DNA of 64,000 nucleotides from a virus (lineage: Duplodnaviria; Heunggongvirae; Uroviricota; Caudoviricetes), in IMG/VR virus record IMGVR_UViG_2880412407_000011; one strand, written 5' to 3'. The position numbers were made by a program. Within the stretch, counting starts at the first letter, position 1, and the number at the start of each line of letters is the position of its first letter. Shown one piece after another: positions 33,901 through 36,900 of this stretch.

Positions 33901-36900
33901 GCTCGATAAAGTTGAGGCGGTTCTGTTACCCGCTTATGCACAGAAAACCGGGAAAACCACCGATGAAATTGCTGCCATGCTGGCGGATGAGACCTGGATG
34001 TCCGGTGCCGAATGTCTGGCACATGGATTTGCTGATCAGGTAACGCCAGCCGTTAAGGCAATGGCATGTATTCAGTCAAAACGTACAGAGGAATTTAAAA
34101 AGATGCCGGAATCCATTCGAAACATGATTACTCCGCCACGCAACAGTGCTCCACGCGTACAGGATGATGAACCTGCAGCCTCCCGGACGCCAGTGCAGGC
34201 AGCAGCACCCGTGGTGGATGAAAACAGTATCCGTGCGCAGGTACTGGCAGAGCAAAAAGCGCGTGTAAACGGTATTAATGATCTGTTTGCCATGTTTGGC
34301 AGGCGTTATCAGACGCTGCAGGCTCAGTGTCTTGCCGATCCTGAATGTTCGCTGGAGCAGGCCCGCGAAAAGCTGTTGAACGAGATGGGGCGCGAGTCCA
34401 CGCCATCCAATAAAAATACCCCGGCTCATATTTATGCCGGTAACGGTAATTTTGTGGGGGACGGGATCCGCCAGGCGCTGATGGCGCGTGCCGGATTTGA
34501 AAAAACCGAACGTGATAATGTCTACAACGGGATGACCCTGCGTGAATATGCCCGTATGTCACTGACTGAACGGGGTATTGGGGTTTCCAGTTATAACCCG
34601 ATGCAGATGGTCGGTGCGGCGTTCACACACAGTACGTCTGACTTCGGTAATATTCTGCTGGATGTTGCGAACAAAGCCATTCTGCAGGGCTGGGAAGATG
34701 CTCCTGAAACCTATGAACAGTGGACGCGGAAAGGTCAGTTGTCTGATTTTAAAATTGCCCATCGTGTGGGTATGGGGGGCTTCAGTGCTCTGCGTCAGGT
34801 GCGTGAAGGGGCGGAATATAAATACGTCACCACCGGAGATAAACAGGCCACTATTGCACTGGCGACCTATGGCGAGCTGTTCAGTATCACCCGTCAGGCC
34901 ATTATCAATGATGATCTGAATATGCTGACCGATGTCCCGATGAAGCTGGGCCGTGCGGCGAAATCCACCATTGCCGATCTGGTTTATGCCATTCTGACGT
35001 CTAACCCGAAAATCTCCACAGATAATGTAAGTCTGTTCGATAAAGCGAAACATGCAAACGTACTGGAGAGCGCTGCAATGGACGTGGCATCGCTGGATAA
35101 AGCCCGCCAGTTGATGCGCGTTCAGAAAGAGGGGGAGCGTCATCTGAATATTCGTCCTGCGTTCGTACTGGTACCGACGGCGATGGAGTCTGTTGCTAAC
35201 TAGGTCATTCGCTCTTCAAGTGTCAAGGGGGCTGACATTAACGCCGGTATTATTAACCCGGTGAAAGATTTTGCGACCGTTATTGCAGAGCCTCGTCTTG
35301 ATGATAACAGCCAGACCACCTTCTACCTGGCTGCGTCCAAAGGCTCCGATACGATTGAAGTGGCTTATCTCAACGGTGTGGATACGCCATATATTGATCA
35401 GATGGAGGGCTTCAGTGTGGATGGCGTGACAACGAAAGTGCGTATTGACGCCGGTGTCGCGCCAGTTGATCACCGCGGTCTGGTGAAATGTACGGCGTAA
35501 ACGTCGCAGACAACAACTCTGATGGCCCGTAAGGGCTTTTTTTGTACCTGAAATCAGCCTCTGAACGGGGCTGTGCGGAGACAGTTATGGCAAAGAATTT
35601 TGTAGAAGAAGGAAAAACGGTGGCGATTGTTGCCAGTGCAGCCATCAGCAGCGGAGATCTGGTGCAGGTGGGTGATGTTTTTGCGGTGGCGCTGACCGAT
35701 ATTCCACAGGGTGAAACAGGCGACGGCATGACCGAAGGTGTGTTTATCCTGCCTAAACTGAAAACGGATGACATGAAAACGGGTAAGAAGGTTTATCTGA
35801 AGTCCGGAAAAGTTCAGCTGACTAACAGCGGCTCTGATCCGCTGGTCGGGGTTGTCTGGGCAGATGCCGGAACCAGTGCAGAAGAAGTGCCGGTAAAACT
35901 CAATGTCTGATCCCTTTTCCCGGCTGGCAGCGCGTATGGATGCGATCACGGTCAGAAAGATGGGAAAGACAGCCTCGATTAATGATGTCGATATGGCTGT
36001 GATCCCGGGCGAAACACTGGCAGAGCTGAATGCTCTGTCCGGACCTGCGGTCTCTCTGGTGGTGTTTTCTTCGGGATACCGCCCACGGCGCGGGGATCGC
36101 GTTGTTTATGACGGACAACAATGGACGGTCACACGGCATGAACGTTTTAACGGTAAGCCAATGATCTTTATTGAGTAAAGAGGTGTGGGATGAAGGGGCT
36201 TGAGAATGCCATCCGCAATCTGAACAGCCTTGATACCCGTATGGTGCCACAGGCCAGCGCATGGGCGATAAACCGTGTGGCACAGAAAGCGGTCTCGGTT
36301 GCCACCAGGCAGGTTGCCGGGAATACCGTTGCGGGAGATAACCAGGTGAAAGGGATCCCCCTGAAACTGGTACGTCAGCGTGTCCGGGTGTTTAAAGCCA
36401 GTCCGTCAGGAAAAATGACGGCCAGGATCCGCGTTAACCGGGGCAATCTGCCCGCCATTAAGCTGGGGACAGCCCGGGTCAGACTGGCCCGGCGTGGTGG
36501 AAAACTGCAGTACCGTGGCAGTGTGCTGAAGGTGGGTAAATATCTTTTCCGGGATGCGTTTATTCAGCAACTGGCGAATGGTCGCTGGCATGTGATGCGG
36601 CGTATTGATGGCAAAAATCGTTACCCCATTGATGTGGTGAAAATCCCGCTTTCCGGACCGCTGACACAGGCATTTGAAGATGCCCGCGACCGCATCATTG
36701 CTGCGGAAATGCCGAAACAGCTGGGGTATGCACTGAAACAACAACTGAGGTTATGGCTGACCCGATGAACCGACATACACAAATCCGCCAGGCCGTACTG
36801 GCACGCCTTCGGGAACAGTGTGGAGACAGCGCCACGTTTTTTGACGGGCTTCCGGCATTTATTGATGCGCAGGAACTGCCTGCCGTGGCGGTGTGGCTGA

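Follow-up and report, generated by a model that had tools for sequence, protein, structure and literature searches.

A clone-specific amber codon in the capsid fusion gene of a decayed lambdoid prophage of Escherichia coli O121:H19

In the stretch of DNA analysed here (64,000 nt, hereafter the window), the major capsid gene of a lambdoid prophage is interrupted by an in-frame TAG, and a satellite nested within the same prophage carries a capsid gene of its own. This raises the question of what the stop codon stands for: an error in the sequence, a codon that is read through, a truncation kept by selection or the decay of a gene that is no longer needed. The initial annotation had read the sequence correctly, and its reading is supported by our analysis; the feature is ordinary prophage decay. 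The pseudogene status of the gene is already known, being flagged as 'internal stop' in the NCBI RefSeq/PGAP annotation. [quoted passage not shown]

The amber codon and the gene that it interrupts

According to RefSeq and Pfam, the interrupted gene of the resident lambdoid prophage (33473–35500, + strand; 675 codons) is a pseudogene that encodes a ClpP-like prohead protease, a scaffold and a major capsid protein fused in a single frame with an internal amber codon. Between positions 33,901 and 36,900 the window includes ...GCT AAC TAG GTC ATT..., with T-A-G at 35201–35203 (+ strand), and the frame 33281–35500 translates as ...LVPTAMESVAN*VIRSSSVKGADINAG...EPRLDDNSQ...IEVAYLNGVDTPYIDQMEGF...VKCTA*. 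Both the sequence and the frame translation therefore bear out that the protease–capsid ORF stops at this codon. The TAG is codon 577 of 675 and corresponds to a CAG (Gln) changed by a C-to-T transition at 35201. On its 5′ side the reading frame is still open through the protease, the scaffold and two thirds of the capsid domain, and the truncated product may conceivably have some residual or new function. On its 3′ side the same frame continues, as the initial annotation had stated, but not for the 99 codons given there, a number that counts the terminal TAA. The orphaned coding segment (35204–35500, + strand) consists of 98 sense codons plus the TAA, encodes the last third of the capsid domain and is otherwise undamaged.

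When the stop is repaired to Q, the product is a protein of 652 residues, numbered from the ATG at 33542. Pfam detects CLP_protease at residues 23–168 (124.9 bits), followed by Phage_capsid_4 at residues 352–649 of 652 (187.3 bits). Both domains exceed the gathering score, the island paralogue gives the same result, and Mu-like_gpT appears among the weaker matches of the repaired protein. The stop corresponds to residue 554 of 652 in the ATG numbering, so that the truncated capsid domain lacks about one third of its length. Phage_capsid_4 spans the stop in the repaired protein, which identifies the downstream segment as a genuine capsid C-terminus. A search of PDB sequences returned only weak, distant matches to Mu-GpT-domain capsid proteins, for example 8rkx and 8rkc (E about 3e-4); a match of this strength points to the fold family (HK97-type, Mu gpT-like) and does not suffice for mapping the truncation on a structure.

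A tblastn search with the resident capsid frame as the query against the window found one paralogue, at 27897–29786. The alignment runs across the stop with 51% identity over 660 positions (E = 0). The resident stop faces the Q in '...RALQMINS...' of the paralogue, and the codon at this position, as established by DNA alignment and a frame check, is CAG (29475–29477, in-frame codon 527). The earlier claim that the stop aligns exactly with a glutamine CAG of the paralogue, from which it differs by a single C-to-T change, thus agrees with both tblastn and the DNA alignment. Comparison with orthologous prophages, which had been proposed as a check, led to the same result: CAG occupies the site of codon 577 in all three orthologues read (E. 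coli 1EC213, phage mEp460 and E. coli E2865). In 1EC213, the C/T base at the TAG is the sole difference from the window over the 81-mer centred on that codon. Intact homologues align over the full length of the region in which the in-frame stop sits, the pattern of a nonsense ('internal stop') pseudogene, and RefSeq/PGAP labels the identical sequence as a pseudogene, 'ClpP-like prohead protease/major capsid protein fusion protein; internal stop'.

The closest known counterparts are the ClpP-like protease/major capsid fusions of the mEp460/cdtI type. They have the same domain order, and nucleotide identity to phages mEp460, cdtI, Ayreon, Tritos and others is 98.5–99.4%. Whereas the copies in mEp460, 1EC213 and W24 are intact (675 aa in 1EC213 and W24; the mEp460 record annotates the gene from a downstream ATG), the reading frame of the copy in the window breaks off at codon 577 of 675. 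The O121 gene differs from intact orthologues by 16–33 nucleotides, less than 1.7% over the whole gene. The segment after the stop is 99% identical to them, with only 1–4 differences, all of which are synonymous, a likeness far beyond chance. Apart from the TAG, the differences are ordinary substitutions, and the pattern in the capsid gene suggests nothing beyond recent point mutation. One of the substitutions, G277R (GGG to AGG, window position 34301), is an O121-specific missense change in the linker/scaffold part, as compared with three intact orthologues. We also considered repair of the TAG by gene conversion from the island paralogue. It is unlikely, as DNA similarity between the two genes is patchy (64–73%) and no blastn segment extends over the site.

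Occurrence of the allele among E. coli genomes

Seven complete E. coli O121:H19-type genomes match the 2,061-nt gene region with 100% identity, and an eighth, 2015C-3107, has the same gene sequence broken by IS600. In the latter (NZ_CP027317.1, 215737–219064), the IS600 lies inside a capsid fusion gene that was already interrupted by the amber codon, an instance of continuing decay. Among 1,819 complete E. coli genomes bearing the gene, the 81-mer centred on the TAG has an exact match in only eight, all of them O121:H19-type and near-identical to the window; five further genomes mismatch at one base and the remainder at at least two. Exact matches to the truncated product are found on about 100 public contigs, 69 for the 576-aa version (GTG start) and 34 for the 553-aa version (ATG start), and the source names for the latter include Escherichia coli O121:H19 str. 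2010C-3840. With eight complete genomes and about 100 contigs in agreement, the TAG is a real allele, not a base-call error, and it appears to be fixed in the O121:H19-type clone.

The window itself is 100% identical to strain 16-9255 (NZ_CP022407.1) over 42,061 bases. Over the remaining sequence a single SNP (within the first 21 kb) and one additional IS3-family copy separate the two, and the window therefore comes from a sister O121:H19 strain of 16-9255. The extra IS3-family copy (1,310 bp, 56693–58002) is present in the window and absent at this place in 16-9255; it adjoins IS600 in a second prophage.

The resident prophage and its nested island

The site of the resident prophage in E. coli O121:H19 is the rspB/ydfJ (Qin) locus. 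Its features were taken from the RefSeq annotation of the near-identical record, a position in the window being the record position minus 903857. The left arm (5557–8401, − strand) is decayed: it consists of an integrase remnant of 102 nt (5557–5658), xis and a truncated exonuclease gene that abuts an IS3-family element (7188–8401). A partial rem gene begins at 8458, directly after this element (left arm region 5557–8607). Since the exonuclease gene and the IS3-family element directly precede rem, the immunity/replication region is missing. Two IS66-family elements are present at the left end of the prophage, and an IS600 (51796–52952) adjoins a tail-fibre-assembly fragment. Moreover, ydfR (14588–14899, + strand) is a pseudogene owing to a second C-to-T change from Gln to stop, CAA to TAA at 14774–14776 (codon 63). 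The terminase gene terL is split into an N-terminal fragment (19514–20497, + strand) and a C-terminal fragment (30693–31811, + strand), as defined by RefSeq and by junction alignment with mEp460; their 984 and 1119 nt add up exactly to the 2103 nt of mEp460 terL.

Strain W24 has the same type of prophage and likewise an island at this position in terL, but there the early region is complete, and both ydfR and the 675-aa capsid fusion gene are intact. Judged from this gene content, W24 would represent an ancestral-like state of the prophage. The description of the prophage as capsid-defective holds as far as it goes, given that Phage_capsid_4 is truncated and no supE-type suppressor was seen in the window or at glnV and glnX of strain 16-9255. 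It nevertheless understates the case: the prophage is multiply disrupted, and the amber codon is not the cause of its defect. In a prophage already badly degraded, the amber stop is one of many lesions, although in principle it could have been the first inactivating hit.

In all of this the prophage resembles the cryptic or defective lambdoid prophages of STEC, the Qin-locus family, which occupy the same kind of locus, have accumulated IS insertions, deletions and nonsense codons, and are likewise inherited vertically and stably within a clone. We see no substantive difference from that family, the amber at 35201–35203 being specific to the O121:H19-type clone. A pool of defective prophages has been described for O157 (Asadulghani et al. 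2009, as cited in PMC8767318). PMC8767318, which deals with O121:H19 prophages, provides lineage context and makes no mention of the capsid fusion gene. The same paper reports tandem prophage sites for O121:H19. A second lambdoid prophage in tandem, at 55128–64000 of the window, fits this report; it has an intact integrase gene, xisR, IS600, an exonuclease gene, dicB and a cI/cro-type region.

The terL gene is split by a PICI-like island of 10.2 kb (20498–30692, + strand), delimited by RefSeq annotation and by alignment of the junctions with the intact terL of mEp460. According to the same alignment, the insertion is clean and lies at a short, imperfect core around TGGATG. The genes of the island encode, in order, an integrase, an AlpA-like HTH protein, Bro-N, an Icd-like protein, DUF4222, a primase, SSB and a ClpP/capsid fusion. 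This last gene (27897–29786, + strand), with CAG at 29475–29477 opposite the resident TAG, is an intact ORF of 629 aa for a ClpP-protease/major-capsid fusion, in keeping with the earlier statement that the nested satellite has an intact capsid gene. The junction between the integrase gene and terL recurs in 83 E. coli genomes (coverage 80% or more), and in many O157:H7 genomes an integrase gene with 100% identity to that of the island again lies beside a terL fragment.

In a survey of HE-PICIs, 491 elements were mapped to 14 sites in cognates of lambda late genes, gene A included (Tommasini, Mageeney & Williams 2023, PMC10111431). A search of supplements to that survey turned up none of the O121 accessions. 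The island described here has the same size of about 10 kb and the same complement of int, AlpA-like HTH, Bro-N, primase and late capsid genes, and it is embedded co-directionally in a helper late gene that corresponds to lambda gene A, with the break in terL at 20497/30693 and both the island genes and the late operon running on the + strand. RefSeq features also reproduce the four-zone HE-PICI organisation (int and AlpA, Bro, replication, late). Judged by gene organisation and insertion in a late gene, the island thus appears to fit the published helper-embedded configuration. Unlike the published cases, the helper here is a dead remnant, and with a dead helper the locus is a fossil with no working system. 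Gram-negative PICIs commonly carry a capsid gene, which is not needed for their transfer (PMC10111431).

Several repeats were observed within the island. Just downstream of the primase gene, at 26289–26477, there is a cluster of repeated or inverted 'TGAACTGTTCACC' motifs (iterons); PICI replication origins have been reported at the same position, downstream of the primase gene (PMC10111431). A 42-nt GC-rich stem followed by a T-run occurs twice, at 27310–27351 (after SSB) and at 29847–29888 (after the island capsid gene), with 79% identity between the copies, and a second pair of repeats is found nearby, at 27411–27431 and 29950–29970. The appearance of both pairs suggests duplication of a terminator or of a module boundary.

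Probable neutral loss versus selected truncation or read-through

Taken together, the data make it very probable that the TAG arose as a nonsense mutation (CAG to TAG) which is neutral, is specific to one clone and cuts short the capsid domain encoded by a gene of a cryptic prophage. A spontaneous C-to-T change would have turned Gln577 (CAG) of the protease/scaffold/major-capsid fusion gene into an amber codon in the O121:H19 lineage. The mutation is presumably later than the prophage and probably also later than the nested island. In W24 an island occupies the same terL site in a prophage whose capsid gene is intact, and in the simplest history the helper with its island was established before the amber, which followed as one of several degenerative hits. 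The allele would then have become fixed in the O121:H19 lineage. Its product, truncated after about two thirds of an HK97-type (Mu gpT-like) capsid domain, would be unable to build capsids, and the only full-length protein expected is a trace arising from rare near-cognate read-through. Because the prophage already was, or was becoming, non-functional, the change was most likely neutral with respect to selection and amounts to ordinary pseudogenisation rather than to a device for recoding or regulation. The amber is thus one more inactivating lesion in a cryptic prophage and carries little weight beyond bookkeeping. It does confirm that the prophage cannot make heads of its own. The more interesting neighbour is the satellite, embedded in the terminase gene of its helper and equipped with its own capsid paralogue.

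Could the truncation have been selected instead? The product of 553–576 aa might act as a dominant-negative and poison the assembly of heads by related phages that superinfect the cell. Alternatively, the paralogue of the satellite might be favoured once the capsid gene of the helper is lost. The long ORF upstream of the TAG is still open, the allele appears fixed in the clone, and the island does carry an intact capsid paralogue. Furthermore, satellites are known to interfere with the capsid genes of their helpers, PLE CapR being one example cited in PMC10111431. However, the allele has a single origin within one clonal lineage, where hitch-hiking or drift accounts for its fixation, and the same prophage has several other degenerative lesions, a second nonsense codon among them. 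Genome 2015C-3107 has since acquired an IS600 in the gene at no apparent cost, and the island itself is trapped in a helper devoid of integrase and early genes. On balance, we regard selection for the truncation as very unlikely. A specific form of the idea, in which the truncated protease–scaffold–partial-capsid protein is expressed and owes its retention to interference with the assembly of heads by related incoming phages or by the helper, seems most improbable. If it were true, an embedded satellite with its own capsid gene would gain from the inactivated capsid gene of its helper.

Functional read-through of the amber, whether by a suppressor tRNA, as a programmed event or by near-cognate tRNA-Gln(CUG), would yield a useful full-length capsid protein. 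The 98 downstream codons are undamaged, as this would require, and near-cognate decoding of UAG by tRNA-Gln inserts Gln and would recreate the ancestral protein. An intact downstream region is nevertheless to be expected in any case, since the whole gene differs from its relatives by so little. In E. coli, basal read-through of UAG stays well below a few percent, while a capsid needs hundreds of subunits. Programmed read-through was rejected because the stop is not conserved among homologues: recoding sites keep their stop, but here CAG is present in the three orthologues and the paralogue, and the 81-mer with TAG is confined to one clone, leaving no conservation that would hint at recoding.

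The search for a suppressor points the same way. ARAGORN found no tRNA genes in the 64,000 nt or in the fetched flanks. The initial annotation had suggested checking the host for supE-type alleles, and for this purpose we used the near-identical strain 16-9255, in which glnV and glnX were located through a synteny walk along the metT-leuW-glnU-glnW-metU-glnV-glnX operon. Both genes have the wild-type CTG anticodon. A supE-type suppressor was therefore found neither in the window nor at glnV and glnX of 16-9255; the check covered these two genes and a few other tRNA loci in this one sister strain, among about 100 tRNA genes. As a positive control, a query with the supE (CTA) allele retrieved 155 exact records, and the 40 of them listed were mostly from K-12-type laboratory strains (such as C600, DH5alpha and DH1). 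Other classes of amber suppressor are unlikely in the host.

The situation does recall the amber mutants in phage head genes that are grown on supE/supF hosts. There too CAG has become TAG in an essential head gene, and supE tRNA-Gln(CUA) would restore the wild-type residue. In contrast to those laboratory mutants, however, the present case concerns a natural isolate without supE and a prophage that is non-viable for other reasons, so that there is no conditional-lethal system. The prophage would have no way of using a full-length protein even if one were made, and we accordingly assign functional read-through a very low probability.

That the TAG is a sequencing or assembly error over a true C (CAG) is next to impossible: the codon does differ by a single base from all orthologues examined, but the same base was obtained in the eight complete genomes, which were sequenced separately in different laboratories and years, the exact truncated proteins were called on the public contigs, and the site (AAC TAG GTC) contains no homopolymer. 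Being specific to the O121:H19-type clone, the amber allele could possibly be used as a lineage marker.
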